This document shows positions 2,361 to 50,709 of a stretch of DNA of 64,000 bases, piece by piece. The translations under genes were made by a program, and so were the position numbers. Position 1 is the first letter of the stretch; the number at the start of each line of letters is the position of its first letter. The notes beneath the pieces were generated by a model. The model ran no database searches. It worked only from the letters and a program-made list of their open reading frames with translations, and had not been told where the DNA came from. The DNA is taken from NCBI GenBank assembly GCA_963710575.1, contig CAVQAL010000003.1, forward strand, positions 149,372 to 213,371, read 5' to 3'. This stretch comes from an uncultured delta proteobacterium (GTDB lineage Bacteria; Desulfobacterota; Syntrophia; Syntrophales; Smithellaceae).

Positions 2361-3305
2361 TCATTTACTAATATTGTTAAACACCCTGACAATCTTGGCC
2401 GCCTGCCTTTTTCCATCGAATTCAGAAAATTTATTTACCGGCGCCACCATTTCCGCAACAGCCAAAAGATACCCACTGCTACTGATGAATTTTACCATAT
2501 CTCCAGCTTTAAGAAAAGGGAGATCATGTTCCTTCATCATTTCCACAGAAGGTTGCCATCCATTACGCAGTTTTGCCGCAGAATGATCTTCCAGTTCAAT
2601 TGAAGTCAGCAACGGCAATAGTTCCACCATCGGCAATATTTTTTCTAAAAGTTTATTCTTTTTATCATTATCCTCATAATTGTTCAGGGAAACAGCCATT
2701 TCTTCGGAAAAAAAACCGCTGCGCAGACGACGAAGGCTGCATAAACATGCTCCAAGGCCAAGCAGATCACCGATATCGGAACAAAGCGTCCTGATGTAAG
2801 TCCCTTTAGAGCAGACAACCCGAAAAGTGACGCGGGGAAAAGAAATATCTTCAATAACGATACTATGAATTTTTACCTCCCGCGGTTCCATTTCTAAAAA
2901 AACACCGTTTCTTGCCCATTTATATAGAGGTTTGCCGCAATGCTTGATCGCGGAATAGGCCGGAGGAACCTGTTTGACCGTCCCCACCATCCGCGCCATT
3001 GCCACTCTTATTTCTTCTTCGGTTACAAAATTATCGGATTGGCTGGTAATTTTACCTTCAATATCCAATGTGTCCGTTTTCACACCCAGCAGCATTGTCG
3101 CAAGGTATTCTTTGTCTTCGCCAGTTAGAAAACCCGCCAGCTTCGTAGCCTCATTCAAACATACAGGCAGCACGCCAGTAACCATTGGATCAAGCGTTCC
3201 GGTGTGGCCCGCTTTTTTTACGCCCAGGATTTTCTTTACTTCACTGACAACATCATGCGAAGTCACACCCGCCGGCTTGTCAATGATTACCACTCCATCC
3301 ATCAT
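2361..3305 (-). CDS. truB: tRNA pseudouridine(55) synthase
   Basis: The N-terminus DGVVIIDKPAGVTSHDVV...GHTGTLDP carries the TruB catalytic Asp motif. There is a PUA-like C-terminus, and the synteny is rbfA-truB-rpsO. Confidence 0.95.
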   Translation of the reverse strand: MMDGVVIIDKPAGVTSHDVVSEVKKILGVKKAGHTGTLDPMVTGVLPVCLNEATKLAGFLTGEDKEYLATMLLGVKTDTLDIEGKITSQSDNFVTEEEIRVAMARMVGTVKQVPPAYSAIKHCGKPLYKWARNGVFLEMEPREVKIHSIVIEDISFPRVTFRVVCSKGTYIRTLCSDIGDLLGLGACLCSLRRLRSGFFSEEMAVSLNNYEDNDKKNKLLEKILPMVELLPLLTSIELEDHSAAKLRNGWQPSVEMMKEHDLPFLKAGDMVKFISSSGYLLAVAEMVAPVNKFSEFDGKRQAAKIVRVFNNISK

Positions 3306-3310
3306 AAATA

Positions 3311-4261
3311 TTATAATTCCCTTATCGCTTCAATAATCTGCGATTTAATTAATTGAATGTCACCTTTCATCCAGCAAGCCGAAGCGTGAATATGACCGCC
3401 GCCGCCAAACTTCCTGGCTATTTTTTCTACATTGGCATCAGCTTTGGAGCGCAAGCTCAATTTATAATTGTTATCTCCCCGTTGAGTGTAAAGAATTGAT
3501 ATTTCAATGCCTCCTACGGTACGGGGAATATCGACAAAACCCTCTGTGAGTTCCCATGATGCTCCTGTTTCCTGTAGAGCTTTTTGCGTAACAACCATAG
3601 AACCAACTTTATTTTTCAAATCCAGAGATAAGGTTTCCAACGCTTTGGCCAGTAATTTTAATCTTGCTGGAGAATCGTTTTCATAAATATTTTCCGCGAT
3701 CCACTGCGGATCAGCACCGTTTTTCACCAGATTTCCCGCCGCAAAAAGCGTTTCATTTGTAGTGCTCGAGTAACGGAAACTGCCTGTATCCGTTATAATT
3801 GCCGCATATAAATTAGTGCAAATATCTCTCGATATATTAAAGTGCATTTCCTGCATCAAACGGAACAGCAATTCGCCCGTTGAACTGGCCTGCGCATCCA
3901 GCATTTTCAGCCGGCAAAAACCGTTGTTGGAAACATGATGATCAATATTTATTAGTTTTTTAATTTTTCCGATATTATCCGCTTCATCTCCAACTCTTGC
4001 CAAATCACTGCAATCAAGAATAATGCCGACATCATATTGTTCAACGTTGTTTATATCATGAACTATATTTTGCGCCGCCGGCAAAAACCGGTAACGTTCC
4101 GGTGTATGATCCTGATTATAAATTACAACATTTTTCCCCATCTCTCTCAACATGAGGTAAAGAGCCAATTCCGAACCTAAAGCGTCTCCGTCCAGTCTTA
4201 CATGCGCCGTAATTAAAAAGCTTTGCCCTTCATTTATAGCCGTAATAATTTCATTAATCAT
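3311..4261 (-). CDS. DHH/DHHA1 phosphoesterase (NrnA-like oligoribonuclease / pAp phosphatase)
   Basis: DHH motifs are present (..HVRLDGDALGS.., ..NIDHH.., ..GGGGHIHASA). Confidence 0.85.
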   Translation of the reverse strand: MINEIITAINEGQSFLITAHVRLDGDALGSELALYLMLREMGKNVVIYNQDHTPERYRFLPAAQNIVHDINNVEQYDVGIILDCSDLARVGDEADNIGKIKKLINIDHHVSNNGFCRLKMLDAQASSTGELLFRLMQEMHFNISRDICTNLYAAIITDTGSFRYSSTTNETLFAAGNLVKNGADPQWIAENIYENDSPARLKLLAKALETLSLDLKNKVGSMVVTQKALQETGASWELTEGFVDIPRTVGGIEISILYTQRGDNNYKLSLRSKADANVEKIARKFGGGGHIHASACWMKGDIQLIKSQIIEAIREL

Positions 4262-9948: not shown

Positions 9949-10023
9949 TGGAGCGGGCGACCGGGCTCGAACCGGCGACGTCCAGCTTGGGAAGCTGACA
10001 TTCTACCACTGAATTACGCCCGC
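9949..10023 (-). tRNA. tRNA-Gly (anticodon CCC)
   Basis: The reverse complement folds by hand as GCGGGCG-TA-ATTC-AGTGGTA-GAAT-G-TCAGC-TTCCCAA-GCTGG-ACGTC-GCCGG-TTCGAGC-CCGGT-CGCCCGC-T-CCA. This is a full cloverleaf with an encoded CCA. Confidence 0.93.
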
Positions 10024-10195: not shown

Positions 10196-11782
10196 TTATC
10201 TCTGTGACTCCTTCGACGATACGCAGATTTCCAATATCCGATCCACATTAAAGACACGTTTCTGATTGCGCTCCAAGCAATAGGCGCCCAATCCCAAAAA
10301 CGAATGTCCGTTGTATTCCATATCCTCTATCACCACCGGCCGGATCATTCTCCTCGATTTTTCATCTTTTGCTTTGAGGTAAACAATCTCGATAGTTTGC
10401 TTTTCTTTAATCGCCGCGGCAAGCATTTCCAATTTATCTTCGCGGGTGCAGGAAAGCGCGGCTTTGGCATACTGCATACCGGTTAAGAATTTGACCACCT
10501 GCCAATCCATTAAAACATGGTTTTTCTTCAGCGGATGCCTCAACACGATGCCTTCCAGCGTTGTACAGCGGGAAAGAGCCACATACATCTGCCCGTGAGC
10601 GAAGGTGCCGCGCCCCACATCAATGACAACCTTTTCAAAAGTTTTCCCCTGGCTTTTATGAATGGTCACGGCAAAGGCCAGCCGCACCGGATACTGGCGG
10701 AAAGACCCGACCTCTTCCGAGCGCAGCTCCTCATTTTTGAGAAAGAACTTGTAGATTTTCCAAGTGTAGAGAGAGATTTCCACCGTTTCGCCATTATCCA
10801 GTTCGGCTACGATTACATCTTCTCCTTCCTCGTCCTTTTCAAATTTTTTTACCTTACCGATTGTTCCGTTAATCCAACGCCCATAGGCATCATTATTTAA
10901 AAGCATGATTTGGGCGCCTTTTTTCAGTTTCAGCTCTTCGGCTGTCGGCATGGATTCTTTGCCGAACTCTCCGTCAACCAGGCCTCGCGCTTTCCATATT
11001 TTGCCGGACAATTGGGCAAGCCGGTTGTAATTGATCATATCGGACATATCGTTGGTGCTGGTCAGCGATATATAAAATTCATCGGCGGACACTTCAAAAG
11101 ACGGATTGCAGCTCTTATTGAACAACGCGATATCATCATCCGTGATAGAGTTATTGCGAATAGCATTGAGCAGGCGGACAAATTCGTCATCCTTCTGCCG
11201 GTAAACTTTTTCCAGCTCGACAAATTCCATATCCAGATGTTCCATGACTTTGGCGCTGAAAAAATAAGGACTGGTATAATGCGACCGGAATATTTCACGC
11301 TCCGCGCCGGAGACAACCGGCGGCAACTGATAGAGATCACCGATGAAAATCATCTGCACGCCGCCGAAGGGACGTTTGGAATTGGGGCCGTTCAGACGCA
11401 GAAATTTATCCACGCAATCCAGCAGATCAGCCCGCACCATGGAAACTTCATCAATGACGATGGTTGTCAACTTTTTATAGATAGATGTTTTTTCTTTGCC
11501 GCTCGCCTTTTTTTTCTTGATGGCGGCAAGCGTTACATTGGGTTTGAAATGGAAAAAGGAATGAATGGTCTGTCCGCCTACATTAACAGCGGCAACACCT
11601 GTCGGCGCCAGAATAACAACGTTTTTCCCCGTGTTGTCATGAAAATAATTCAGCAGGGTTGATTTGCCGGTTCCTGCCCGCCCCGTGATGAAGATATTTT
11701 TGTCCGTCTCTTCCATCATATCCAGCGCATGCTGAAACTCAGGATTGAAATCTATTTCGACCGGTTTTGATTTTTTTGTCAT
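10196..11782 (-). CDS. Pif1/RecD-like SF1B DNA helicase with C-terminal WYL-like domain
   Basis: Walker A is present (ITGRAGTGKSTLL), with ..VVILAPTGVAAVNVGG.., ..IVIDEVSMV.. and ..FAVTIHKSQGKTF... The C-terminal roughly 90 aa (..IEIVYLKAKDEKSRRMIRPVVIED..GLGAYCLERNQKRVFNVDRILEI) has the WYL-domain pattern. Confidence 0.85.
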   Translation of the reverse strand: MTKKSKPVEIDFNPEFQHALDMMEETDKNIFITGRAGTGKSTLLNYFHDNTGKNVVILAPTGVAAVNVGGQTIHSFFHFKPNVTLAAIKKKKASGKEKTSIYKKLTTIVIDEVSMVRADLLDCVDKFLRLNGPNSKRPFGGVQMIFIGDLYQLPPVVSGAEREIFRSHYTSPYFFSAKVMEHLDMEFVELEKVYRQKDDEFVRLLNAIRNNSITDDDIALFNKSCNPSFEVSADEFYISLTSTNDMSDMINYNRLAQLSGKIWKARGLVDGEFGKESMPTAEELKLKKGAQIMLLNNDAYGRWINGTIGKVKKFEKDEEGEDVIVAELDNGETVEISLYTWKIYKFFLKNEELRSEEVGSFRQYPVRLAFAVTIHKSQGKTFEKVVIDVGRGTFAHGQMYVALSRCTTLEGIVLRHPLKKNHVLMDWQVVKFLTGMQYAKAALSCTREDKLEMLAAAIKEKQTIEIVYLKAKDEKSRRMIRPVVIEDMEYNGHSFLGLGAYCLERNQKRVFNVDRILEICVSSKESQR

Positions 11783-11972
11783 TGTTTTTCCCGCAATTTA
11801 TTGTGTCCGACAGTAAACACTTTTTACGCAAGACTTCAATAATAATTCTTTGATTTTAAATAAATATTCGTGTAGAAATATACCATTCCAAGAACAAATT
11901 TTGTTTCAAACCGGTATATAACTGGTTACGTATATTAATTGTTATGCAAAAGATACTATGGGAGAGAATATA

Positions 11973-12227
11973 ATGCCTCCGAAATCTCGCAAAATTCCGC
12001 ACTATCTCCGGTGTTTCCACTGCGGGCGCGATAGAGAGATATCAAAGTATGAAGGGAGCGCACCGCGTGATTGTGATCCTTCGCTTTACCGGCACACACA
12101 AGACGCATCAATGCCTTTTCATAGCATTGCCTGCACTTGCGGCCACTATACAAGCTATGGATACGACGTTTTTGAGGATCAAGGTTGGGGATTAAATCAA
12201 TCGAAAGACAAGACCAAAAAGGCATAA
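11973..12227 (+). CDS. hypothetical Cys/His-rich small protein (cassette 1 ORF)
   Basis: A GGGAGAG Shine-Dalgarno lies 6 nt before the ATG at 11973. The protein has CFHC...C..CTCGH cysteines. The stop codon lies inside the attC R'' box GCATAAC. I recognise no family. Confidence 0.5.
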   Translation: MPPKSRKIPHYLRCFHCGRDREISKYEGSAPRDCDPSLYRHTQDASMPFHSIACTCGHYTSYGYDVFEDQGWGLNQSKDKTKKA

Positions 12228-12278
12228 CCCGTCAATCCAGCCGACTCGTTACACTCACGGCTGATTTTATCGTTGGCC
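12222..12278 (+). repeat. integron attC-like recombination site (attC-1)
   Basis: GCATAAC-ccgtca-atCCAGCCG...CGGCTGatt-ttatc-GTTGGCC. This gives R'' (RYYYAAC-like), L''/L' stem and R' (GTTRRRY-like) in canonical order with 6/5-nt spacers. Confidence 0.7.
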
Positions 12279-12301
12279 TCAAAATACAATCAAGAATTAT
12301 G

Positions 12302-12330
12302 TTGCCATAATGCACACATTGTGATACGAT
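12302..12330 (+). promoter_or_regulatory. sigma70-type promoter for the brnTA cassette
   Basis: TTGCCA, a 17-nt spacer, then TACGAT with an upstream TG (extended -10), ending 10 nt before the brnT ATG (12340). Confidence 0.45.
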
Positions 12331-12339
12331 ACTTACTAT

Positions 12340-12624
12340 ATGAAAAGTATAAACTGGAACACAGAGAAGAGTTTAGCACTTAAGACATTGCGGGGCATCT
12401 GTTTTGAAGATATGGTATTTTACATCGAAAGGGGTGACATTTTAGATGACTATTTGCATCCCAACCAGCGCGACTACTCCGGACAGAGAATTATGGTCAT
12501 TGGAACTGAAAATTACGCATATCTTGTGCCTTACGTCGAAAATGATGAAGAATTATTTCTAAAAACAATCATTCCAAGCAGGAAGGCAACACAAAGATAT
12601 CTTGGAGAAAAAAATGAAGACTAA
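12340..12624 (+). CDS. brnT: BrnT-like type II toxin
   Basis: 94 aa. The N-terminus ..W..EK...L...RGI.FED.. and the C-terminus ..LKTIIPSRKATQRY follow the BrnT pattern. It overlaps its antitoxin partner. Confidence 0.7.
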   Translation: MKSINWNTEKSLALKTLRGICFEDMVFYIERGDILDDYLHPNQRDYSGQRIMVIGTENYAYLVPYVENDEELFLKTIIPSRKATQRYLGEKNED

Positions 12625-12892
12625 ATTAACGAAAGAAGAAAAAGAAATTCTCGATAGCTTCGAAAAAGATGAGTGGGTTCCTGTTACAAACCTTGCAAAA
12701 AGAAAAAAAGAGTTGATTGCTTATGCCCGCAACACTTTGCGAAAAGACAAGAGACTGAACATACGTATTTCTGAGAGAGACCTTCTTGAACTTCAGAGAA
12801 AGGCGGTTGTTGAAGGCCTGCCCTATCAGACTTATGTATCCAGCATTATCCACAAATTCATTAATGGCGTTTTAGTAGAAGCGCGAAAATAA
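12614..12892 (+). CDS. brnA: BrnA-like antitoxin (CopG/RHH C-terminus)
   Basis: MKTKLTKEEKEILDSFEKDEWVPV...KDKRLNIRISERDLLELQRKAVVEGLPYQTYVSSIIHKF is the typical BrnA layout. A GGAG Shine-Dalgarno precedes the ATG at 12614. Confidence 0.7.
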   Translation: MKTKLTKEEKEILDSFEKDEWVPVTNLAKRKKELIAYARNTLRKDKRLNIRISERDLLELQRKAVVEGLPYQTYVSSIIHKFINGVLVEARK

Positions 12893-12895
12893 AAA

Positions 12896-12989
12896 GGCCA
12901 ACAAAATCAATACAGCTCATGTCACGGTCTGCATGTGACGCTTCGCGTCCCGGCAGGCCTTGTGCCACTGCTGAGCTCCGCTGTTCGGC
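12896..12989 (+). repeat. integron attC-like site (attC-2, long form)
   Basis: GGCCAAC-aaaatc-...AGCTCA...TGAGCT-ccgct-GTTCGGC. The R'' box is the exact reverse complement of the R' box at 12272-12278. Confidence 0.6.
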
Positions 12990-13020
12990 ATAATAACAAA
13001 CCAAACAAAAAAGGAGGAAC

Positions 13021-13395
13021 ATGATGATCCCGGAGAAACTGAAGGAAATCATGAAAAAGGACGGAGTTGTTGCGATCGCCACCCTGGGACCTGATGGCCC
13101 CCATTTGGTCAATACCTGGAATAGTTACCTAAGGATATCAGAAGATGAACGGCTTTTTATCCCCGCAGGTTACATGCACAAGACGGAGGCCAACATTGCC
13201 CATAATCCGAATGTGTTGATTACATTGGGGAGCAGTAAGGTCGAGGGCCTGCATGGGCCGGGTGCCGGTTTCTTGATCAAGGGAACGGCAAGGTTCGTGA
13301 CGTCCGGGCCTGATTTTGATTTTATGAAGGAAAGGTTCAGCTGGCTACGTGCCACCTTGGCCGTTACAATTGAATCTGCCACTCAAACTTGGTGA
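13021..13395 (+). CDS. pyridoxamine 5'-phosphate oxidase-family (split-barrel flavin-binding) protein, cassette 3
   Basis: 124 aa with an AAGGAGG Shine-Dalgarno. The ..DGVVAIATLGPDGPHLVNTW.. pattern is typical of PNPOx-like small proteins. Confidence 0.7.
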   Translation: MMIPEKLKEIMKKDGVVAIATLGPDGPHLVNTWNSYLRISEDERLFIPAGYMHKTEANIAHNPNVLITLGSSKVEGLHGPGAGFLIKGTARFVTSGPDFDFMKERFSWLRATLAVTIESATQTW

Positions 13396-13452
13396 AGCGC
13401 AATTGCATGATTTCTGCAATCCCTGTAACACGTGTAGATCACGACAGGAATT

Positions 13453-13517
13453 GCCGAACCCGTCGCTACAGCCGATTGCGGCCCCTTGGGCCGCTCCGGC
13501 TGATTTTTTCGTTCGCT
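13453..13517 (+). repeat. integron attC-like site (attC-3)
   Basis: GCCGAAC-ccgtcg-ctaCAGCCG...CGGCTGatt-ttttc-GTTCGCT. The box spacing matches attC-1. The R'' box is the exact reverse complement of the R' box at 12983-12989. Confidence 0.7.
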
Positions 13518-13526
13518 ATAATATAA

Positions 13527-13556
13527 TTGACAAAACCATATCGATCGTGATATCGT
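13527..13556 (+). promoter_or_regulatory. sigma70-type promoter for the vapBC cassette
   Basis: TTGACA, an 18-nt spacer, then TATCGT with an upstream TG. Confidence 0.4.
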
Positions 13557-13586
13557 AGCACAAAATAGATCGATGGAGGTATTGGT

Positions 13587-13793
13587 ATGAAATCAGTAAC
13601 CATATCACCAAAATATCAAGTCGTTATACCTAAAACCGTCAGGGAGGCATTGAAGCTTCATCCAGGACAAAAAATGCAAATCGTTGAATATGCCGGTCGT
13701 ATTGAGCTTATACCGGAACGTGATATAAAAGAACTCCGTGGATTTCTCAAGGGTATCAATACGGAATTCAAACGAAAGGAAGATCGGATATGA
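13587..13793 (+). CDS. vapB: AbrB/MazE/SpoVT-family antitoxin (VapB-like)
   Basis: The N-terminus MKSVTISPKYQVVIPKTVREALKLHPGQ is a swapped-hairpin type. It has a 4-nt ATGA overlap with the PIN gene. Confidence 0.8.
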   Translation: MKSVTISPKYQVVIPKTVREALKLHPGQKMQIVEYAGRIELIPERDIKELRGFLKGINTEFKRKEDRI

Positions 13794-14164
13794 ATATTGT
13801 AGATTCTTCCGGCTGGCTTGCCTACTTTGCCGATGAGCCTAATGCCAAACATTTTCTGCCCCCCCTGAGTAATTCGGACTTACTTATTATTCCCGTAGTA
13901 ACGATATACGAAGTTTTCAAGGTCATTTTACGGGAGTCCAGTGAGAATGAAGCATTGCAGGCTCTTGTTGCCATGCAAAAGGGAAAAGTTGTGGATCTAA
14001 GCACACCACTGGCAATAGCGGCTTCAAGACTTAGTCTTGAGCATCAACTTCCAATGGCGGACAGTATCATTCTCGCAACAGCACAAGAATTCAAGGCCAT
14101 TATATGGACTCAGGATTCCGATTTTAAAAATATTAACAAGGTGAAGTACTTTCCAAAAAAATAA
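13790..14164 (+). CDS. vapC: PIN-domain toxin (VapC-like)
   Basis: The N-terminal MNIVDSSGW carries the first acidic residue. The later ..DSIILATAQ.. and ..TQDSDF.. match PIN motifs. Confidence 0.8.
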   Translation: MNIVDSSGWLAYFADEPNAKHFLPPLSNSDLLIIPVVTIYEVFKVILRESSENEALQALVAMQKGKVVDLSTPLAIAASRLSLEHQLPMADSIILATAQEFKAIIWTQDSDFKNINKVKYFPKK

Positions 14165-14165
14165 A

Positions 14166-14212
14166 GTCCAACAAAATCACTCCAGCCGCTCCGGCTGATG
14201 CTTCAGTTTGCA
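14166..14212 (+). repeat. integron attC-like site (attC-4, short)
   Basis: GTCCAAC-aaaatc-actCCAGCCG-ctc-CGGCTGatg-cttca-GTTTGCA. The R'' box fits RYYYAAC exactly. The 6-nt spacer is identical to that of attC-2. Confidence 0.6.
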
Positions 14213-14239
14213 CAATACGATTTCAAGGAAAGAATCGAC

Positions 14240-14692
14240 ATGATTTTAGACGTACTTGAGAATGCACACCGCTATCTGGCCTTGCACAAGAGGTTTGCAA
14301 AGGCATTTGATTTTCTCTTACGCCCGGATCTGAAGGAACTGCCCGTGGGGAAATATGAGATAGACGGTAAGAGCGTCTATGCGATGGTGTCTAAGGCTGC
14401 CGGCCGCAGGAAAGGGGATGCCCTGCTCGAAACGCATGAGAAATACATCGACATACAGCTGGTTCTGTCAGGAACCGATGATATGGGCTGGAAGCCCAGG
14501 TCATTATGTAAACATTCATTCGGGGAATACGATCAAAAAACTGATGAGCAGATTTTTACGGACGAACCGGATGCCTGGATTTCAACTCAAAGCGGAGCGT
14601 TTGTAATCTTCTTCCCTGAAGATGCGCACATGCCGCTGATCTCGTCAAGCCAGATCCACAAAGTCATTGTAAAGGTCGCCGTAAACTCATAA
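14240..14692 (+). CDS. YhcH/YjgK/YiaL (DUF386) family protein, cassette 5
   Basis: MILDVLENAHRY...GKYEIDG..VYAMV......ETHEKYIDIQ...G.E...........VIFFPEDAHMP is the family pattern. I prefer the internal ATG at 14240. Confidence 0.7.
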   Translation: MILDVLENAHRYLALHKRFAKAFDFLLRPDLKELPVGKYEIDGKSVYAMVSKAAGRRKGDALLETHEKYIDIQLVLSGTDDMGWKPRSLCKHSFGEYDQKTDEQIFTDEPDAWISTQSGAFVIFFPEDAHMPLISSSQIHKVIVKVAVNS

Positions 14693-14918
14693 AAGATAAA
14701 GATACCTTGCACTGGATCGGCGGGAAACTACCTCGACTCCTCATGAGTTAAAGCATCAAGAACATCCTAATCTTTTCATAGTCTCTTTCAACAACTTATA
14801 CCGCTTTGATTTCAAAGGCTAATGCGACGGCAAGGAGAAGGCTCCGCAGGCGTATTATTAATACGTTGAGGAAGCTGACGACGCAGCCAACAAAGTTAGC
14901 CGAAGAAGCGAAGTGGTA

Positions 14919-15680
14919 TCAGTCAGTTTCTTCCGGTTTCTTTCCAACATACAAGCAGGTAATGCCAAACGTGAGAGGATATATTTCAACTTCAGCCATG
15001 CCGGTATCCTGCATGATTTTGGCGAATGCATCCGGTGACGGAAAGTTCATAATGGAATCGGCAAGGTAATAATACGCGGCGGCGTTTTTGGAAAACAACT
15101 TGGCCATCAGAGGAAGCAGGTAATTCAAATAAATATAATAAAATAATTTGAAAAACCGGTTCTCAATAAAAGTCATTTCCAATATTATTATCTGTCCGCC
15201 CGGCACGGTAACGCGCAGCATTTCCCTGAGCGCTTTCGTTCTATCGGGAATATTTCTAATCCCGAAAGCCATTCCGGTAACGTCAAAAGTATTGTCGTGA
15301 AAGGGAAGTCTCAAGGCATTGCCTTGCATGAAATTCAACTGGCCGGAGAGGCCTCTTTTCTTCACCTTGTCCTTTCCCATTTTAACCATGGGGAAAACAA
15401 AATCAATGCCGAAGGCTTTTATCTGCCAGTGCTTAAGGCAGGCGTTAATCGATAAATCTCCCGTGCCGCAGGCAACATCCAGAAACATATTGGTTTGGAA
15501 AAAACGCATCTTTTTAATTGCAAACCGGCGCCAGGCAATATCGCGGCGCAAGCTCAGCAGATGGTTTAAAAAATCATACTTGCCGGTAACGGTCGAAAAT
15601 ATTTCTTTTACCATGCCGACGCGCTGGGCATCAGTAATGGTTTTTACCGAAGGATATTTGTTGGCTTTTGATTTTTGCAT
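14919..15680 (-). CDS. ubiE: demethylmenaquinone/ubiquinone C-methyltransferase
   Basis: 253 aa with ..YDFLNHLLSLRRDIAWRR.. and the SAM motif LDVACGTGD. Confidence 0.85.
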   Translation of the reverse strand: MQKSKANKYPSVKTITDAQRVGMVKEIFSTVTGKYDFLNHLLSLRRDIAWRRFAIKKMRFFQTNMFLDVACGTGDLSINACLKHWQIKAFGIDFVFPMVKMGKDKVKKRGLSGQLNFMQGNALRLPFHDNTFDVTGMAFGIRNIPDRTKALREMLRVTVPGGQIIILEMTFIENRFFKLFYYIYLNYLLPLMAKLFSKNAAAYYYLADSIMNFPSPDAFAKIMQDTGMAEVEIYPLTFGITCLYVGKKPEETD

Positions 15681-19129: not shown

Positions 19130-19441
19130 ACGGGTTAACGTGTGGCCTCATAATAATTTAGCCACCACTCGGTCATTCCCCGGTCGAAGATGACCTTCAG
19201 GTTACTTGACCGGGGAATCCAGGAAGCATGATACCAGTGACGATTTTAATCTCCAAATGCCTTCTTCATTTAGCGGATGCATGAAAATAAATTGTTGCAA
19301 AAAAAATGTCAAGTGTTTATAAATCCAAATCATTAATATTTTAAAAGACTTCCATAATTCAGTAGATATCGCCACGGATAGTTAAAAGGATAGACAGAAA
19401 CTTTAGAATAACTTGTTAGTCGTTGAAAGGAGAAAAATAAA

Positions 19442-19996
19442 GTGAGCGATAGAAAAAATCGTGTATGCCCGGTTGAAAGAGCTGGCAGTCTCGACAATAG
19501 AATTCGAAGATGGATACAAAACCCTCATAAAATATTAAAACCCTATATTGAAGAAAGGATGACGGTTCTCGATATAGGTTGTGGTCCAGGATTTTTCTCT
19601 ATTAACATGGCTCAAATGGTTGGAAAATCTGGCCGAGTTATTGCTGCTGATTTACAGGAGGATATGCTTCAAAAGGTGCGAAATAAAATTCAGGGAACGG
19701 GACTTGAGAAACGTATCATCCTGCATAAGTCCGAAGAAAACAGAATAGGTGTATCAGAAAAAGTGGATTTTGTTTTTGCTTTCTACGTGGTTCACGAATT
19801 GCCGAATCAAAAAAAGTTTTTTGAAGAATTGAAATCCATATTAAAGCCGGAAGGAAAAGTGCTTATAGTAGAGCCACCATTCCATGTCTCAAAAACGGCG
19901 TTTGAAGAAACGATCAGAAATGCCCGAGATGCCGGATTTACGCCATCTGAAGGGCCGAAAGTTTTTTTCAGCAAAACAGCAATTTTGAAGGGCTAA
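19442..19996 (+). CDS. class I SAM-dependent methyltransferase (cassette-like)
   Basis: The motif VLDIGCGPGFFS is present. It uses a GTG start after an AAGGAG Shine-Dalgarno. The stop codon is embedded in the attC R'' box GGCTAAC. Confidence 0.8.
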   Translation: MSDRKNRVCPVERAGSLDNRIRRWIQNPHKILKPYIEERMTVLDIGCGPGFFSINMAQMVGKSGRVIAADLQEDMLQKVRNKIQGTGLEKRIILHKSEENRIGVSEKVDFVFAFYVVHELPNQKKFFEELKSILKPEGKVLIVEPPFHVSKTAFEETIRNARDAGFTPSEGPKVFFSKTAILKG

Positions 19997-20046
19997 CCAG
20001 ATGTTGGAGCCGATCGCTTACGCTCTGGCTTAACTTTTCGTTAGCA
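19991..20046 (+). repeat. integron attC-like site (attC-6)
   Basis: GGCTAAC-cagatg-TTGGAGCC...GGCTTAA-cttttc-GTTAGCA. R'' and R' are complementary over GCTAAC/GTTAGC. Confidence 0.6.
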
Positions 20047-20063
20047 GGTGCAATCAATAAACA

Positions 20064-20561
20064 ATGTCGAATCTAAAAATCAGAGAATGTACTCAAAAAG
20101 ATACCGAAGCCCTAGCTGAAACTATTCGAAGATCATTTCAGGATGTGGCGAAACGCTTTAACCTGACCAAAGAGAATGCTCCTCGCCATTCATCCAATTG
20201 CACAGAGGATTGGGTTCAAAAGGATATGGAACGCGGCATCACTTATTTCGCTTTGGAAAATGAAAACATTGTTGTTGGATGCGTTGCTCTTGAGCAGGCA
20301 AAGCCAGATGTATGTTATCTGGAACGCCTCGCAGTTCTTCCCGATAAGCGACATCGTGGTTTTGGGAATAAATTGGTTATTCATGTGTTGTCCGAGACTA
20401 AAACTCTTGGAGTTCATCGCGTTAATATAGGAATCATTGCCGAGCACACCGAACTGAAAAACTGGTATAAAAAAATCGGTTTTGTTGCGGGAGAAACCAA
20501 GGAATTTTCGCACCTGCCTTTTCGTGTCACCTTCATGTCCTATTTATTAGATAAAGGATGA
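20064..20561 (+). CDS. GNAT family N-acetyltransferase (cassette-like)
   Basis: 165 aa. The ..LAVLPDKRHRGFGNKLV.. segment is an acetyl-CoA-binding motif A. Confidence 0.85.
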   Translation: MSNLKIRECTQKDTEALAETIRRSFQDVAKRFNLTKENAPRHSSNCTEDWVQKDMERGITYFALENENIVVGCVALEQAKPDVCYLERLAVLPDKRHRGFGNKLVIHVLSETKTLGVHRVNIGIIAEHTELKNWYKKIGFVAGETKEFSHLPFRVTFMSYLLDKG

Positions 20562-21489: not shown

Positions 21490-21728
21490 ACATGAGACCT
21501 TCTTGTTTAAAAATGTGAACAATTGTTAAAAAGTTTTTGCAGGATACAAAAAAGATGAGGATAAAACAAATGTTTTTTCCATAGGGATTATAAAGAAAGT
21601 TGTCAAACGTACTTTATCGACTTCACCTTGTGTTCTTATACTTTGTCATTTGCTATAAAATAGCATCATAAAATGCTAAGGTAAACTGGAAGAGTGAATC
21701 TGTATTTCACCTGATGCCAAAGAGCATG

Positions 21729-22873
21729 TTTTGTAGATTAGATCCTCTTCTCATTGCTTTGTTCAATAACTCGTACGGTATCACAAACCTTCTCATATGG
21801 GAATGAGTTTGCACTTGCAAGGTTGATTCGGACAGAGCTTTTTACCGGTGTAAATATTTATAATTATTATAGGAGGCAAATTAATAGGTCAGTAACGGTT
21901 CTGGGGATAGATATCGCCAAACAGAAATTCGATGTAGCACTACTTGCAGATGGGAAGATAAAAAATAAAACCTGTAGGAATTCAACAGAAGGTTTCGAGA
22001 CCTTAAAAGTCTGGCTGGAGAAGCAGGGAATTCAAAAGGTTCATGCCTGTCTGAAAGCAACTGGAAATTACGGTGAAGATTTGGCTGTTTTTCTTCATAA
22101 AGCTGGTCACACGGTCAGCATTGTCAATCCGGCCCGCATCAAAGGATTTGCTCAGAGTGAACTTGTTCGTACCAAGACGGATAAACTTGACGCGGGAGTC
22201 ATTGCACGCTTCTGTTTAGCTATGAAACCAGAGCTCTGGTTTCCGCCTGCACCGGAAATCAGATCATTGAGAGCTCTGGTAAGAAGAGTTGACAGTCTAA
22301 TCGATATGCGTAGCCAGGAGAAGAATCGAATTGGTACGGCGCATGAATCTGTCATCGTTTTGATCAAAGAACATATCATTTATTTAGATCAGGAAATTGA
22401 AAAAATAAGAAAACAAATTGCTGATCTCATAAAACGGAATCCGCATCTTAAACAACGGAAGGATTTACTGGATTCTATCCCAGGACTTGGTAAGGTGACA
22501 GTTCCTCACCTTCTGGCAGAGTTAGATAACCTTGATAAATTTACCCATGTTCGGGAAATGGTCGCCTTCATCGGACTCGCGCCAAAGGAAACGATCTCGG
22601 GATCATCTATTAAAGGCAAACCCAGACTGTGCAAAATCGGAAATGCAAGACTCAGAAAAGCTTTGTATATGCCGGCGCTGGTATCGATTCAGTGCAATCC
22701 TGTTATGATTGCTTTTTATAATCGACTGAAAGAAAAAGGTAAAAATGGCAAAGTTATTGTCTGTGCAATAATGCGGAAATTGGTTCACGTTATATTTGGA
22801 GTCTTGAAATCCGGCAAAAAGTACGATCCAAATTATAAGCCAACTTTTGCTTGACAAGAACGGTATCTACAAA
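21729..22873 (+). mobile_element. IS110-family insertion sequence (boundaries tentative)
   Basis: A DEDD-type transposase ORF is bracketed by the 9-bp inverted repeat TTTGTAGAT (21730-21738) and ATCTACAAA (22865-22873). The true ends could lie further out. Confidence 0.55.
21754..22854 (+). CDS. IS110-family transposase
   Basis: ..VLGIDIAKQKFDVALL.. is the N-terminal DEDD/RuvC-like start. ..DSIPGLGKVTVPHLLAEL.. and ..SGSSIKGKPRLCKIGNARLRKALYM.. are C-terminal Tnp_20-type motifs. There is no canonical ATG/GTG near the conserved start, so the real start is probably around 21880-21900. Confidence 0.85.
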   Translation: MLCSITRTVSQTFSYGNEFALARLIRTELFTGVNIYNYYRRQINRSVTVLGIDIAKQKFDVALLADGKIKNKTCRNSTEGFETLKVWLEKQGIQKVHACLKATGNYGEDLAVFLHKAGHTVSIVNPARIKGFAQSELVRTKTDKLDAGVIARFCLAMKPELWFPPAPEIRSLRALVRRVDSLIDMRSQEKNRIGTAHESVIVLIKEHIIYLDQEIEKIRKQIADLIKRNPHLKQRKDLLDSIPGLGKVTVPHLLAELDNLDKFTHVREMVAFIGLAPKETISGSSIKGKPRLCKIGNARLRKALYMPALVSIQCNPVMIAFYNRLKEKGKNGKVIVCAIMRKLVHVIFGVLKSGKKYDPNYKPTFA

Positions 22874-22927
22874 GTTTTAGTAGTAGGCATTTTCCAGAAG
22901 TGAGGATTACGGATTGAAATATTCATA

Positions 22928-22965
22928 AATGAAAGGCAGAGCTATTGCTGACCCTGTCTTTCATT
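22928..22965. terminator. terminator-like hairpin downstream of the lipoprotein gene
   Basis: AATGAAAGGCAG..(14 nt)..CTGTCTTTCATT, a 12-bp stem with one G.U pair. Confidence 0.45.
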
Positions 22966-22992
22966 TTAAACAGATTGGTTTACAATTTTTAA

Positions 22993-23562
22993 TTATTTGT
23001 TAATTATTTCCCTATATATTTTCCATTCGTCGTTTATTTTTCTCAACTCCAATGTCTTCTCACATTTATCTTTTGATATCGATGAACTATAAAATTGAGT
23101 AAATACTGCTTTGGCAATATTTGCATCCGCTGATATTTGCAAATGGTCAATGAGGATATTTATGTCTTTACATCTCTTATACACCTTGGTTTTATAGGAA
23201 ATCCATCCATTTAAGTCTATCCCTTTGGAATGGAAATCCGACGCATAACAACTACGGTAAGTTTTCATGTCGCCCGATTCCCAGCTAGTTAACCATTTAG
23301 TTACAAAATTTCGTACATCTTGTTTAATGTTAACTGGATCTAAATTATTATCGGTAACAACGGGTGCAGTAATAGGTGCTGCAACTGCAACGACCTCCTT
23401 CGAAGCTACAGGTTCCTCAACCTTGGGAGCAACAACAACCTCTTTCGGAGCTACAGGTTCCTCAACTTTGGGTGAGTTGAATTGGCTCTTGGTTAGAGAA
23501 GTACAACCCGATAGCATTATAATAATCATTGCAACCATTAAGGGTACGAAGTTTTTTTTCAT
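22993..23562 (-). CDS. lipoprotein with PKVEEPVAPKEVV repeats and an NTF2/SnoaL-like C-terminal domain
   Basis: The signal peptide and lipobox read MKKNFVPLMVAMIIIMLSGC. The tandem repeats match those of the neighbouring gene. The C-terminus ..WLTSWESGDMKTYRSCYASDF..DEWKIYRE is NTF2-like. Confidence 0.75.
   Translation of the reverse strand: MKKNFVPLMVAMIIIMLSGCTSLTKSQFNSPKVEEPVAPKEVVVAPKVEEPVASKEVVAVAAPITAPVVTDNNLDPVNIKQDVRNFVTKWLTSWESGDMKTYRSCYASDFHSKGIDLNGWISYKTKVYKRCKDINILIDHLQISADANIAKAVFTQFYSSSISKDKCEKTLELRKINDEWKIYREIINK
23377..23475. repeat. in-frame 39-bp tandem repeat (about 2.5 units) encoding PKVEEPVAPKEVV
   Basis: The unit ctttcggagctacaggttcctcaac(c/t)ttgggagcaacaac is repeated. 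It is near-identical to the repeat at 23915-24025. Confidence 0.85.
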
Positions 23563-23680
23563 AATTGTCTCCTAGAATTTTATTGCCGATATTAATGGCA
23601 GATTTTAAAAATGATTCTGAGTAACTAATATATGATAGAAAAAAGACAATTTGGTTAAATGTTTATCTCGGTTCATATTT

Positions 23681-24478
23681 TTATTTTGTTATGAATTCCT
23701 CAACTTTCATAAAAGGATATGAGAAAATTTCACCGTCTTTTGAACGGATTTTTAGCACATCATCATAGACACCTATTATTTGCCCCTCAATAACTTCACC
23801 ATTCGTCAAAACAATCCCCTTTATTCCTTCATAATAATGTTGGGTTTCGATAGAAGGTACCATTTTGTTTTCTGGTTTCTGGGCTGGCTCTTTTTTTTGT
23901 GTCTCAAGCTCCATAACTTTGGGAGCAACAACCTCTTTCGGAGCTACAGGTTCCTCAACTTTGGGAGCAACAACTTCTTTCGGAACTACAGGTTCCTCAA
24001 CCTTGGGAGCAACAACAACTTCATTTGGGGTAACAGGTTCGCAGGAAACTATATTGATTAATTTTTCACCAACTGTATTGGGAATGATAGCATTCCATTT
24101 ACCAGACTCACTTTCCGGTGATGAATAAATAACATTACCTTTTTCATCATAAAAAATCACAGAAATATCTTTAATTTTTTTATTTACGCAGTCAATTTCC
24201 ATCAACTTTGTGTAATAACTTAACATGGAAGGATTGTCGGGTGCTTTATTTATTACTTTGAGAATTGAAAAATACCTTGTTTTTGCTTCTTTGCTTAATA
24301 TATCTTTTTTCCATACAGAGATAATGCTTTTATCTACTTTTTTAATGCTGCTTTTATCATAATACATATCTCCAACAGAAGTGGTATCAAAATATATCCA
24401 ATCCGCTGCCAATGCCTGATTAACAAATAGGGGAAAAAATACTAAACAAATAATACTCTGAAGATTCTTTGCTTTCAT
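23681..24478 (-). CDS. secreted protein: adhesin-E-like N-terminal domain, PKVEEPV repeats, SH3-like C-terminus
   Basis: A signal peptide ends ..NQALA. The ADWIYFDTTSVGDMYYDKSSIKK.. pattern matches surface-adhesin-E-type domains. There are three repeat units. The ATG at 24478 follows a GAGAGGAAAAAGG Shine-Dalgarno. Confidence 0.7.
   Translation of the reverse strand: MKAKNLQSIICLVFFPLFVNQALAADWIYFDTTSVGDMYYDKSSIKKVDKSIISVWKKDILSKEAKTRYFSILKVINKAPDNPSMLSYYTKLMEIDCVNKKIKDISVIFYDEKGNVIYSSPESESGKWNAIIPNTVGEKLINIVSCEPVTPNEVVVAPKVEEPVVPKEVVAPKVEEPVAPKEVVAPKVMELETQKKEPAQKPENKMVPSIETQHYYEGIKGIVLTNGEVIEGQIIGVYDDVLKIRSKDGEIFSYPFMKVEEFITK
23915..24025. repeat. in-frame 39-bp tandem repeat (about 3 units) encoding PKVEEPVAPKEVV
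   Basis: It has the same DNA unit as 23377-23475. Confidence 0.85.
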
Positions 24479-24702
24479 CCTTTTTCCTCTCAATAATTAA
24501 TATCCGAAGTATGCTTTCTACGATGAGTTGAACACATAATAGCACTATTCATTTTTTTTAAAAGGGGAAAATATACTATCTCATTTATTACTGATTGAAA
24601 GAAAGCATACTTGACAAGGATAACGACTTATTTCTTACAGGAAGAAGGTGCTACAGGAGAGCTGTAGAAAAAACATTCGTTTATTCTGCAGGTGATATCG
24701 GC

Positions 24703-49125: not shown

Positions 49126-50709
49126 ATGAGCAAGACTGCAAAAAAATCTTTTTCTGAGAAAGAGCGCAATTTGAGTATTCACAGTTATGAAGAATTGGCC
49201 GCATTGCACGCGATAGCTAAAATTCTAGCTCAGCCTCAAGACCTGCGCGACCAACTGGAGCTCGTCCTGCAGGAAATGAGCTCCCGTCTAGGCATGAAGC
49301 GGGGCATGATTTCGCTTCTGGACAGGGAAAAAAAAGAGGCATGGCTCGATATTGCTCATGATGTCAATATTGAAGGAATGGATGTAACCTACAAGCCTGG
49401 CGAAGGTATCACTGGCAAAGTGGCGGAAACAGGCCGCCCCATGGCTGTGGCTAATCTTGGTCAGGCTACTCACTTTTTAGATCGCACCGGCGCCCGCCGT
49501 CATTTAAACAGATCGGAGTTGGCTTTTCTTTGTGTTCCCATTATTTATGATGATAATGTTGTTGGAGTTTTATCAGGTGATAAAGTAGCCTTGGAAGTGG
49601 AAAATCTGGATCGCGAACTGGCCATGCTCTCCTCTGTAGCCGAGCTTATGGCTAAGGCTGTACATATCAGGGGTCTGGAAGAAGAAAACGAAAGGCTAAG
49701 AAAAATTGTCGGCAGTGCGCGCACACCTTCAATAGATATTATCGGCCATTCCAAACCGATGCAGGAAGTGTTCGGTCTGGTGGCTCAGGTATCCGATTCC
49801 AATACGACCGTCTTAATCACCGGTGAAACAGGAACAGGTAAGGAACTGATCGCCAGAGCTATCCATATGAACTCTCCACGACACAAAGGGCCGATGGTGC
49901 AGGTTAATTGTGCGGCTATTCCGGATACACTGATTGAAAGCGAGCTCTTTGGTCATGAAAGGGGGGCTTTTACAGGAGCGCTGCATCAACGCCGGGGGCG
50001 TTTTGAAGAAGCTAATGGCGGCACAATTTTTCTGGATGAAGTAGGCGAGCTTTCCGCTGCCGCCCAAGTAAAGCTTTTGCGCGTTTTGCAGGAAAAAAGG
50101 TTTCAGCCTCTTGGTTCTTCGCGGATTATAAATGTTAATGTCCGCATTATTGCGGCAACAAACAGAGATTTAGAACAAGACATTGTGGCAGAACGTTTTC
50201 GTGCCGATTTATTTTATCGTTTGAATGTTTTCCCTATTTATTTGCCTGCTTTGCGCGAACGGGGCAGCGACATCATTCTTTTGGCGGATCATTTTATTTT
50301 GAAATACAGCAAGGAAATGGGGAAAAATGTCAAAAAAATTTCTACTGCAGCAATAGAAGTATTTCTATCTCACAAATGGCCGGGTAATGTGCGTGAACTG
50401 GAAAACTGCATTGAAAGAGCTGTTCTGCTCTCGCATACCGATACTATTGATTCTTTTCATTTGCCACCGTCTTTACATGTAAGAGAAACTAAAGTGGAGA
50501 AGAAGGAACACAGCAAACTATCTTCTGTTGTCGAAGCGCAGGAAAGATCTTTAATTATTGATACGTTAGAAGCAACCGGTGGGAATCAAACAAAGGCCGC
50601 CAAAGTTTTGGGGACAACAAAACGTATTATGCAATATAAAATCACTAAACTGGGGATTAATCCTAAACTTTTTCGCAAGAAAAATAAAGACGCCGGAGAA
50701 ATCGAGTAA
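49126..50709 (+). CDS. sigma54-dependent transcriptional activator (GAF + AAA+ + Fis-type HTH; NifA-like architecture)
   Basis: A GAF-like N-terminus is present (..[19 protein letters not shown]..). The AAA+ core has GETGTGKE and the GAFTGA loop (ERGAFTGA). The C-terminal HTH reads [22 protein letters not shown]. The start is ATG at 49126 or TTG at 49090. Confidence 0.92.

Follow-up and report, generated by a model that had tools for sequence, protein, structure and literature searches.

Organization of the cassette array

We analysed a stretch of 64,000 nt (hereafter, the window) from an uncultured delta proteobacterium of the Smithellaceae (GenBank assembly GCA_963710575.1, contig CAVQAL010000003.1, positions 149,372 to 213,371), in which an earlier inspection of the letters by themselves (hereafter, the sequence-only reading) had proposed an integron-type array of gene cassettes, separated by attC recombination sites and lacking an integrase gene (intI). 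The region from 11941 to 14212 contains four co-oriented plus-strand cassettes with attC sites between them, and these are followed by a fifth unit, a DUF386 gene, with no detectable attC of its own (Table 1). Designations such as L143 and P0002 are our labels for loci and contigs from other genomes.

Table 1. Features of the array, of its proximal flank and of a second cassette site. A slash marks a junction; scores are from our covariance models R1 and R2 (see text); ORF, open reading frame; aa, amino acids; SAM, S-adenosylmethionine.
Feature	Position	Strand	Description
Pif1-family helicase with C-terminal WYL domain	10196..11782	-	divergent from array; Pfam
attI	11806..11947	+	ends ACGTATATTAATTG/TTATGC; predicted crossover between G11941 and T11942
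Cassette 1	11942..12272	+	89-aa Cys-rich ORF 11958-12227; R' GTTATGC 11941, R'' GCATAAC 12222
attC-1	12222..12278 (57 nt)	+	60.2 bits, E 3e-15 (R1); 55.1 bits (R2)
Cassette 2	12273..12983	+	BrnT-like toxin 12340-12624 and CopG/BrnA-like antitoxin 12602-12892 (Pfam)
attC-2	12896..12989 (94 nt)	+	long, degenerate; missed by R1; 14.4 bits, E 0.25 (R2)
Cassette 3	12984..13511	+	PNPOx-like flavoprotein 13021-13395 (Pfam)
attC-3	13453..13517 (65 nt)	+	41.6 bits (R1); 50.8 bits (R2)
Cassette 4	13512..14206	+	MazE/AbrB antitoxin 13587-13793 and PIN toxin 13790-14164 (Pfam)
attC-4	14166..14212 (47 nt, 3-nt loop)	+	20.9 bits, E 0.002 (R1); 23.5 bits, E 7e-4 (R2)
Terminal unit	14207..14755 (distal limit approximate)	+	DUF386/YhcH-family gene 14240-14692 (Pfam, NCBIfam)
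Second cassette site	19390..20046	+	left junction ...AGAATAACTTG/TTAGTC (about 19416); SAM-methyltransferase cassette 19442-19996; solitary attC 19991-20046

The five plus-strand units and the families proposed for them were confirmed with Pfam, as was the identity of the gene divergent from the array, a Pif1/WYL helicase and not intI. The 89-aa product of cassette 1 matched neither Pfam nor NCBIfam. In look-ups of the exact protein sequences, the helicase and the PNPOx-like protein returned no match. A promoter scan gave better promoter-like sites within the two toxin-antitoxin cassettes than in the attI region, at 12302-12330 in cassette 2 and at 13527-13556 in cassette 4 (TTGACA-18-TATCGT).

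The proximal limit of the array is G11941/T11942. At the distal end, the R' box of attC-4 is GTTTGCA at 14206, and homology to the DUF386 unit in L062 and L142 begins at 14207-14209, just past the G of R', which corresponds to the attC-4 crossover. The DUF386 unit is present in L142 and absent from L143, in which homology to the window's distal flank is back by 14835. Judged from these comparisons, the unit behaves like a cassette with its left edge at the predicted attC-4 crossover.

Structure and detection of the attC sites

All four palindromes are bounded by NNNNAAC and GTTNNNN, and the order R''(RYYYAAC)-L''-variable loop-L'-R'(GTTRRRY), with AAC pairing with GTT, can be read directly in the sequence; every R box lies where the sequence-only reading had placed it. 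Its picture of units separated by palindromes holds for four sites, one of which (attC-2) is aberrant, and not for the end of the DUF386 unit. Over the 64 kb there are three copies of the motif CAGCCG...CGGCTG, each of them on the plus strand within the array, against 0.04 expected. This CAGCCG/CGGCTG L stem had been proposed for attC-1, attC-3 and attC-4 and was borne out, with the spacing of the arms corrected to 9-10 nt from AAC to CAGCCG and 8 nt from CGGCTG to GTT. The R''-L'' arm of attC-1 has a bulged C; an extra base on this arm, between AAT and CAGCCG, is found in the window sites and in 98 members of the wider family, is expected to be extrahelical and would mark the bottom strand as the one recombined. 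The R'' box, which had been described as lying at the stop codon of the preceding gene, does overlap or closely follow the stop in attC-1, attC-2 and attC-4, and in attC-3 it is found 57 nt past it.

Because Rfam holds no attC family, we built our own covariance models. A genome scan, limited to one genome per species, with the pattern CAGCCG-N(3-33)-CGGCTGATTTTNNCGTT returned at least 120 loci where, by our own estimate, about 8 are expected by chance, and among the matches listed most came from metagenome-assembled genomes (MAGs) that bear the labels Syntrophaceae, Smithella, Syntrophus, Syntrophales or 'Deltaproteobacteria'. Across 99 distinct sites, AAC was found 9-10 nt 5' of CAGCCG, preceded by RYYY, with RRRY after GTT, none of which was part of the search pattern. 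Model R1 was made from an alignment (A1) of 98 attCs, none of them from the window, and model R2, which is broader, from an alignment (A5) of 150 diverse hits. Run over the whole window with filters off, R1 matched attC-1, attC-3 and attC-4 at their exact predicted ends, as well as a further attC at 19991-20046, and gave E >= 0.2 to everything else in the 64 kb. R2 added attC-2 as a weak fourth site of the array, its fifth-ranked match in the window, with exactly the predicted ends. The 5' arm of attC-2 is identical at 17/17 positions to many family attCs by blastn, and the family matches are confined to that arm; its centre and 3' arm are aberrant. Within the 150-site alignment, compensatory double changes were seen at 6/9 pairs of the L stem, and 95% of its cells were paired, as opposed to at most 40% when the partner was slid, with the reservation that the alignment was itself fitted to the structure, so that these counts lean towards it.

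Bottom-strand folds gave the R and L helices with an unpaired spacer between them. The fold of attC-3 had an energy of -19.2 kcal/mol (z = -4.0), and relative to shuffled sequence those of attC-1 and attC-2 had z = -0.5 and z = -1.7, making folding energy alone a poor test of an attC. A weak attC-like match at 50170-50225 on the plus strand (13 bits, E 0.5-0.65), with AAC/GTT boxes and a short GGCA/TGCC stem, was set aside on its score as probably due to chance.

Complementarity and recurrence of cassettes

In each of cassettes 1, 2 and 3 the R' box at the start and the R'' box at the end are exact reverse complements, just as the sequence-only reading had it: the pair of cassette 1 is given in Table 1, and those of cassettes 2 and 3 are GTTGGCC (12272) with GGCCAAC (12896) and GTTCGGC (12983) with GCCGAAC (13453). 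Thus three of the four window cassettes match at all four variable bases. We made the same comparison for 110 cassettes from other genomes, each flanked by two model matches. The tail of the upstream R' and the head of the downstream R'' were complementary at 4/4 positions in 64 of the 110 (mean, 3.03 of 4), whereas the two boxes of a single attC, used as a same-site control, matched fully in only 3/110 (mean, 1.66) and shuffled controls averaged 1.58 matches and never exceeded 1.97. From the 3/110 control rate, the chance of three matches among the four window cassettes is about 1e-4. A count of complementary GTTNNNN/NNNNAAC pairs placed freely at 200-1000 nt is not significant evidence (background, 1.15 per kb; 2.8 expected and 5 seen in the region); the significance of the box pairs derives from their fixed positions in independently detected attC sites. 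The 64/110 result is the footprint of circular cassettes inserted by a crossover at G/TT. Related genomes show R-box conservation, the lack of which the sequence-only reading had named as a refutation, and complementarity across cassettes.

The cassettes also recur as units. Cassette 3 is found whole in L114 (6219-6752, 89% identity) among other neighbours; the homologue starts with GTTCGGC, exactly at the GTT of attC-2, and ends at its own attC. Homologues of cassette 4 are discrete units with the same boundaries in L062, L103 and L003.

We conclude from these results that the palindromes of the window are real integron attC sites. We give hardly any credence to the idea that they are repetitive extragenic palindromic (REP)-like intergenic repeats or intrinsic terminators unrelated to integrons: a simple terminator scan (stem plus T-run) does find attC-3 and attC-4, and the shorter sites, attC-1 with its z of -0.5 among them, fold no better than shuffled sequence, but neither class of element accounts for conserved R boxes that are complementary cassette by cassette, for compensatory changes in the L stem, for a strictly single orientation, for association with TIGR02249 integrases (see below) or for discrete cassettes that recur in other arrays.

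A conserved attI at the head of the array

Three results go beyond the sequence-only reading: a conserved attI forms the 5' end of the array, the array appears to derive from an integron that lost intI at this locus, and in complete relatives the helicase lies directly downstream of intI. With regard to the first of these, L012 is syntenic with the window from nusA through the helicase (87% identity) as far as 11943, in the GTT of the first box, where the synteny breaks off, and L014 has only 11814-11945 in common with the window, downstream of dxs. A metagenome scan with a 25-mer taken from this stretch yielded 33 contigs, in which the module is kept up to ...ACGTATATTAATTGTT and is followed by GTT and an RRRY-like, diverging tail. 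Over the 34 junctions, pairwise identity is 78% for the 40 nt before GTT versus 31% after it, with 31 distinct first cassettes. Co-oriented attCs follow the module in the metagenome contigs, with at least ten of them in L122.

In 21/33 contigs the module has the Pif1/WYL helicase gene upstream of it; this gene is directly adjacent in 20, and in the remaining one a 2.3-kb insertion with a 603-aa ORF (L124:2656-4978) separates helicase and attI. The module adjoins an integron integrase gene in L131, where the contig breaks off within the gene (TIGR02249 as best family, E 9e-58), and the sequence of L153 shows such a gene there too; other contigs have assorted core genes upstream. In L154-L157 intI is preceded, at a distance of about 230 nt, by the same module, which ends ACGTATATTAATTG/TTGGCC. 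The 128-140 nt that come before 11941 are thus the module that stands between intI and the first cassette in L131, L153 and L154-L157, and we conclude that the window retains a conserved attI at the 5' end of its array.

The same observation bears on a different origin for the array, namely that cassettes were put at a non-att genomic GTT and that no integron platform ever existed here. Integrase-mediated insertion outside att sites has been described (bioRxiv 10.1101/2022.09.11.507474), and the single cassette at 19416-20046, which lies behind a different conserved junction, may be such a case. For the array itself we regard this as very improbable in view of the module common to the window and to loci with intI, and of a contig, P0002, that carries a complete integron at the same chromosomal locus.

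A match to a short attC at 11916-11947 (9-10 bits, E 5-9) is on the wrong strand and is better read as the core of attI. Variants of the module were also seen: L141 has two copies 1 kb apart (935-1072 and 1985-2111), and L135 has, around 3254-3330, a truncated module joined to the 3' half of an attC.

Probable loss of the integrase gene at a conserved locus

Using tblastn with IntI1 and six related IntIs, we found neither intI nor a piece of it in the 64 kb, every hit having E > 0.06; these searches take in 11.9 kb upstream and 50 kb downstream of the array. A candidate remnant between the tRNA gene and the helicase was dismissed as a chance-level match (E 1.7) that was not reproduced with closer IntIs. 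Because the window holds neither intI nor a remnant, and because the divergent gene is a helicase, the sequence-only reading was right to call this a cluster of attC sites lacking integron integrases (CALIN), or a sedentary array, with its integrase elsewhere.

In other genomes the same type of attC does stand beside true integron integrases, and each of the tests by which that reading might have been refuted came out in its favour. Six loci (L007, L043, L057, L068, L105 and L117) have a full-length integrase gene within the same 8-kb block as such attCs, in each case flanking the array on one side and on the opposite strand. These integrases are 43-48% identical to IntI1, and the five that were scanned (all but that of L057) score 390-465 bits on the NCBIfam model TIGR02249, 'integron integrase', for which the cutoff is 265. 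Integrases are associated with this attC type in L154-L157 as well, and the L131 integrase has a large group of homologues, 430-450 aa long, that are annotated as 'integron integrase' in MAGs of Syntrophales/Thermodesulfobacteriota. The attI-linked integrases (L068:3569-4882; L131:1-861; P0001-P0120) have an N-terminal extension of about 110 aa before the SAM-like domain, and this extension matched no Pfam family.

In complete relatives, intI is followed by an orthologue of the window's helicase gene, and these helicases are 71-81% identical in amino acids to that of the window. In the P0002 contig, the gene for a 524-aa PIF1+WYL helicase starts within intI (442 aa), with an overlap of 8 bp, and is followed by rimP, nusA and infB; this order is the synteny of the window with intI added, and hence marks the same chromosomal locus. 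The 8-bp overlap of intI and helicase recurs in L160 (38-2930) and L161 (52-2962), in two other chromosomal contexts, and in L105 (4-1302) the two genes are 4 bp apart. In L154-L157 the helicase is separated from intI by two small genes, with rimP further downstream, and three other integrases of the group have no helicase after them. Together these arrangements suggest a recurrent intI-Pif1/WYL helicase operon, of which a search of the literature, itself incompletely searchable, turned up no report. In the window, a tRNA-Gly(CCC) gene lies between the helicase and rimP (9949-10023, minus strand) and is conserved in syntenic relatives, which places the integron platform next to a tRNA gene. 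L012, L142, L143 and the P0002 contig have the nusA-rimP-helicase flank, the ubiE-hisD-murA flank or both in common with the window, and their arrays are different.

Relative to the complete form, the window is without intI and without the intI-proximal 65-95 nt of the intergenic region, so that the ATG of the helicase is about 33 nt from the retained module. Hence we consider it very probable that the region consists of the array and attI of a sedentary chromosomal integron from which the integrase gene has been deleted, a CALIN in the terms of IntegronFinder, and we read the window array as a chromosomal integron that would have lost intI at this very locus. The attC sites, the boundaries of the cassettes, the attI, the lack of intI and the complete homologous integrons are shown directly by our results, and from them we infer the deletion history, servicing in trans (see below), the expression of the cassettes and any role of the helicase.

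The ancestral layout would have been cassettes, attI and intI, with intI divergent from the array and followed by the Pif1/WYL helicase, the tRNA-Gly gene (in some cases), rimP, nusA and infB. Circular cassettes would have been inserted singly at attI (G/TT, 11941) by the IntI subfamily of about 430-450 aa found in Syntrophales/Thermodesulfobacteriota, which is expected to recombine the folded bottom strand of attC with attI; as a result of such recombination a cassette has the TTRRRY tail of its own R' at its start and the remainder of its attC at its end. In the lineage of the window about 1.4 kb, comprising intI and the intI-proximal part of the intergenic region, would then have been lost, leaving attI abutting the start of the helicase.

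Apparent cassette turnover without a resident integrase

Without intI, the array is unable to excise or capture cassettes by itself, and it may instead be serviced in trans, either by an IntI from another part of the genome or by one that is introduced transiently. Three observations together suggest such servicing. Among 19 contigs with the same intI-less helicase-attI junction there are 16 distinct first cassettes. L143 is 92% identical to the window in nucleotide sequence across the helicase and 88% identical across ubiE-hisD-murA-prmC, and between attI and the distal flank it has a wholly different array of 2.1 kb. Finally, a single Smithellaceae contig of 3.5 Mb carries both a complete integron (L068) and, 890 kb away, an intI-less array (L046) with the same attC type. 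That an integrase might be supplied in trans has been raised as a possibility for CALINs (Cury et al. 2016, PMC4889954). We lean slightly towards an array that is still serviced in this manner. The toxin-antitoxin cassettes probably stabilise it, by analogy with other chromosomal integrons.

Several points count against our overall reading of the region. The covariance models stem from a pattern taken from the window's own sites and are biased towards this attC subtype. A Pc promoter, and hence a promoter for the array, could not be established by the promoter scan in the attI region, which has only weak consensus matches (9/12). The diversity of first cassettes could come from homologous replacement of whole arrays, with attI and the flanks serving as homology arms, in place of site-specific recombination in trans. 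The degenerate sites attC-2 (14 bits) and attC-4 (21-24 bits, with its 3-nt loop), the non-complementary boxes of cassette 4 (R' GTTCGCT at 13511 versus R'' GTCCAAC at 14166) and the failure to detect an attC after the DUF386 unit would be explained equally well by decay of an inactive array. In the homologues of cassette 4 the boxes are complementary (GTTGGGT versus ACCCAAC), from which it follows that the ancestral boxes were complementary too and that it is the R' tail of the window copy that has changed.

These same defects are what would be expected of a frozen relic, that is, a dead remnant in a genome without any integron integrase, in which the sites are decaying and the toxin-antitoxin cassettes hold the locus in place. 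The lack of intI in the 64 kb is in keeping with it, and about half of all CALINs occur in genomes without intI (Cury et al. 2016, PMC4889954). We grant this explanation a substantial probability, though one well short of even, since a relic does not readily account for 16 different first cassettes behind one intI-less junction, for attC-1 and attC-3 scoring like sites in complete integrons, for an attI strongly conserved up to the crossover in 34 contigs, or for relatives in which several arrays coexist with a complete integron in one genome (L046 and L068).

We also offer a more speculative proposal, which on balance we doubt: that the integron platform of this Syntrophales lineage is a two-gene operon, with intI translationally coupled to a Pif1/WYL helicase that would aid the generation or resolution of single-stranded attC, and that the window represents a widespread 'satellite' form which has lost intI, has kept the helicase and a fully functional attI, and captures cassettes by means of an integrase acting in trans. 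Neither an active orphan attI nor a helicase as a dedicated integron accessory factor is described in the literature that we searched.

Comparison with known integrons

In the published definition, a CALIN has at least two attC sites that lie on one strand and are spaced by less than 4 kb; intI has to be absent over the same distance, and an intI pseudogene over 10 kb. The loss of the integrase from one of several integrons has been discussed as a possible origin (PMC4889954). The window fits this definition, with four plus-strand attC sites at 12222-14212 and no intI nearby, and its cassettes are, as in other CALINs, mostly single short ORFs or toxin-antitoxin pairs. It differs in that attI is retained and conserved, in that the origin can apparently be traced to a specific deletion of intI at a conserved locus, and in that the intI-less form is widespread here, with a different first cassette in nearly every contig.

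The superintegron of Vibrio, with its VCR repeats (Vibrio cholerae repeats), is a sedentary chromosomal integron. The window array resembles integrons of this kind in being chromosomal and situated between core genes, in the high similarity of the attCs of its lineage, in its toxin-antitoxin cassettes, in the mostly unknown or accessory function of its cassettes and in the variation of its content between close relatives. In contrast, it is small (4-5 cassettes), it lacks an integrase in cis, its host is an uncultured Syntrophales-like anaerobe (of the Thermodesulfobacteriota, to judge by how the closest loci and proteins are labelled), and the IntI subfamily associated with it carries about 110 additional aa at the N terminus and usually has the Pif1/WYL helicase after it. 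By the criteria of Cury et al. 2016 (PMC4889954), an integron counts as sedentary if it is present in all genomes of a species or if its attC sites number more than 19; the window array has four. Our search of the literature on integrons in Syntrophaceae or Smithella found nothing relevant.

The sites may also be compared with the aadA-type attC of class 1 integrons, which is 60 nt long. A near-copy of it is found at L105:2625-2684. Common to this type and to the window family are the order RYYYAAC, spacer, L'' (C/A)AGCCG, loop, L' CGGCT(G/T), spacer and GTTRRRY, an R''-L'' arm with the extra base, and a size range of 55-65 nt. The window family is distinguished by its CAGCCG/CGGCTG L box, by a characteristic 3' arm, ATTTTTTC, and by a consensus loop, ATCGCTACGCTC, and the window, unlike class 1 integrons, has no transposon or plasmid context and no resistance genes.

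What we describe is no new kind of system; it is an integrase-less chromosomal integron of known type. Two aspects go beyond the textbook picture, namely an attI that is retained and apparently still used without an integrase in cis, and the recurrent intI-Pif1/WYL helicase operon. Integrase-less arrays are common and are usually treated as debris of uncertain origin, whereas here the origin is legible as the loss of intI at a conserved locus. If orphan attI sites are indeed in use, CALINs that retain attI would be active capture sites, beyond their role as reservoirs of cassettes. The operon, for its part, points to a possible host or accessory factor for the recombination of single-stranded attC, a poorly understood step. 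Finally, the large and very uniform attC family of these uncultured anaerobic syntrophs could help to recognise environmental cassettes that belong to the group.

A second cassette site and neighbouring features

A second site lies 5 kb from the array, in a region (19390-20561) that ends with a GNAT acetyltransferase gene after the attC. Its attC, at 45.5 bits (R1) and 54.5 bits (R2), shows compensatory changes in the L stem, and the stop codon of the SAM-methyltransferase gene overlaps the R'' box GGCTAAC. On the 19390 side, the sequence of the junction is ...GGATAGACAGAAACTTTAGAATAACTTG/TTAGTC. Between the same flanks L143 has a different cassette, with a 216-aa ORF, and L142 has three other genes; as the left junction is common to L143 with another cassette, we regard this as a reusable insertion site, not a one-off event. 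Consisting of one cassette with a single attC and lying far from any integrase, the element at 19416-20046 is similar to single attC sites or to cassettes inserted outside att sites (bioRxiv 10.1101/2022.09.11.507474; IntegronFinder 2.0, bioRxiv 10.1101/2022.02.28.482270), and it differs from them in that its left junction is conserved and is followed by another cassette in L143.

Between the array and the 3' end of ubiE, at 14796-14919, is a conserved element of about 120 nt, which was also found near arrays in six other loci (L014:356-496, L087:897-1023, L100:1505-1612, L120:7278-7423, L136 and L143:2886-2957). It contains a hairpin, GGCGTAT...ATACGTT, with differing insertions in the loop, and a pair of back-to-back boxes, GCCAAC-AAA-GTTAGCC, which we take to resemble the core of attI1. 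The element had no match in Rfam (E < 1), RNAalifold on five sequences gave no compensatory pairs on either strand, and an Rfam scan of the window found two tRNAs only, with nothing in 14690-14935.

Some IS110-family insertion sequences are known to target attC sites. Beyond the second cassette site, a block of about 3.2 kb at 21500-24697, absent from the otherwise syntenic L143, looks like a recent insertion; it carries an IS110-family transposase gene (21754-22854) and a Cds6/SnoaL-like gene (22993-23562).

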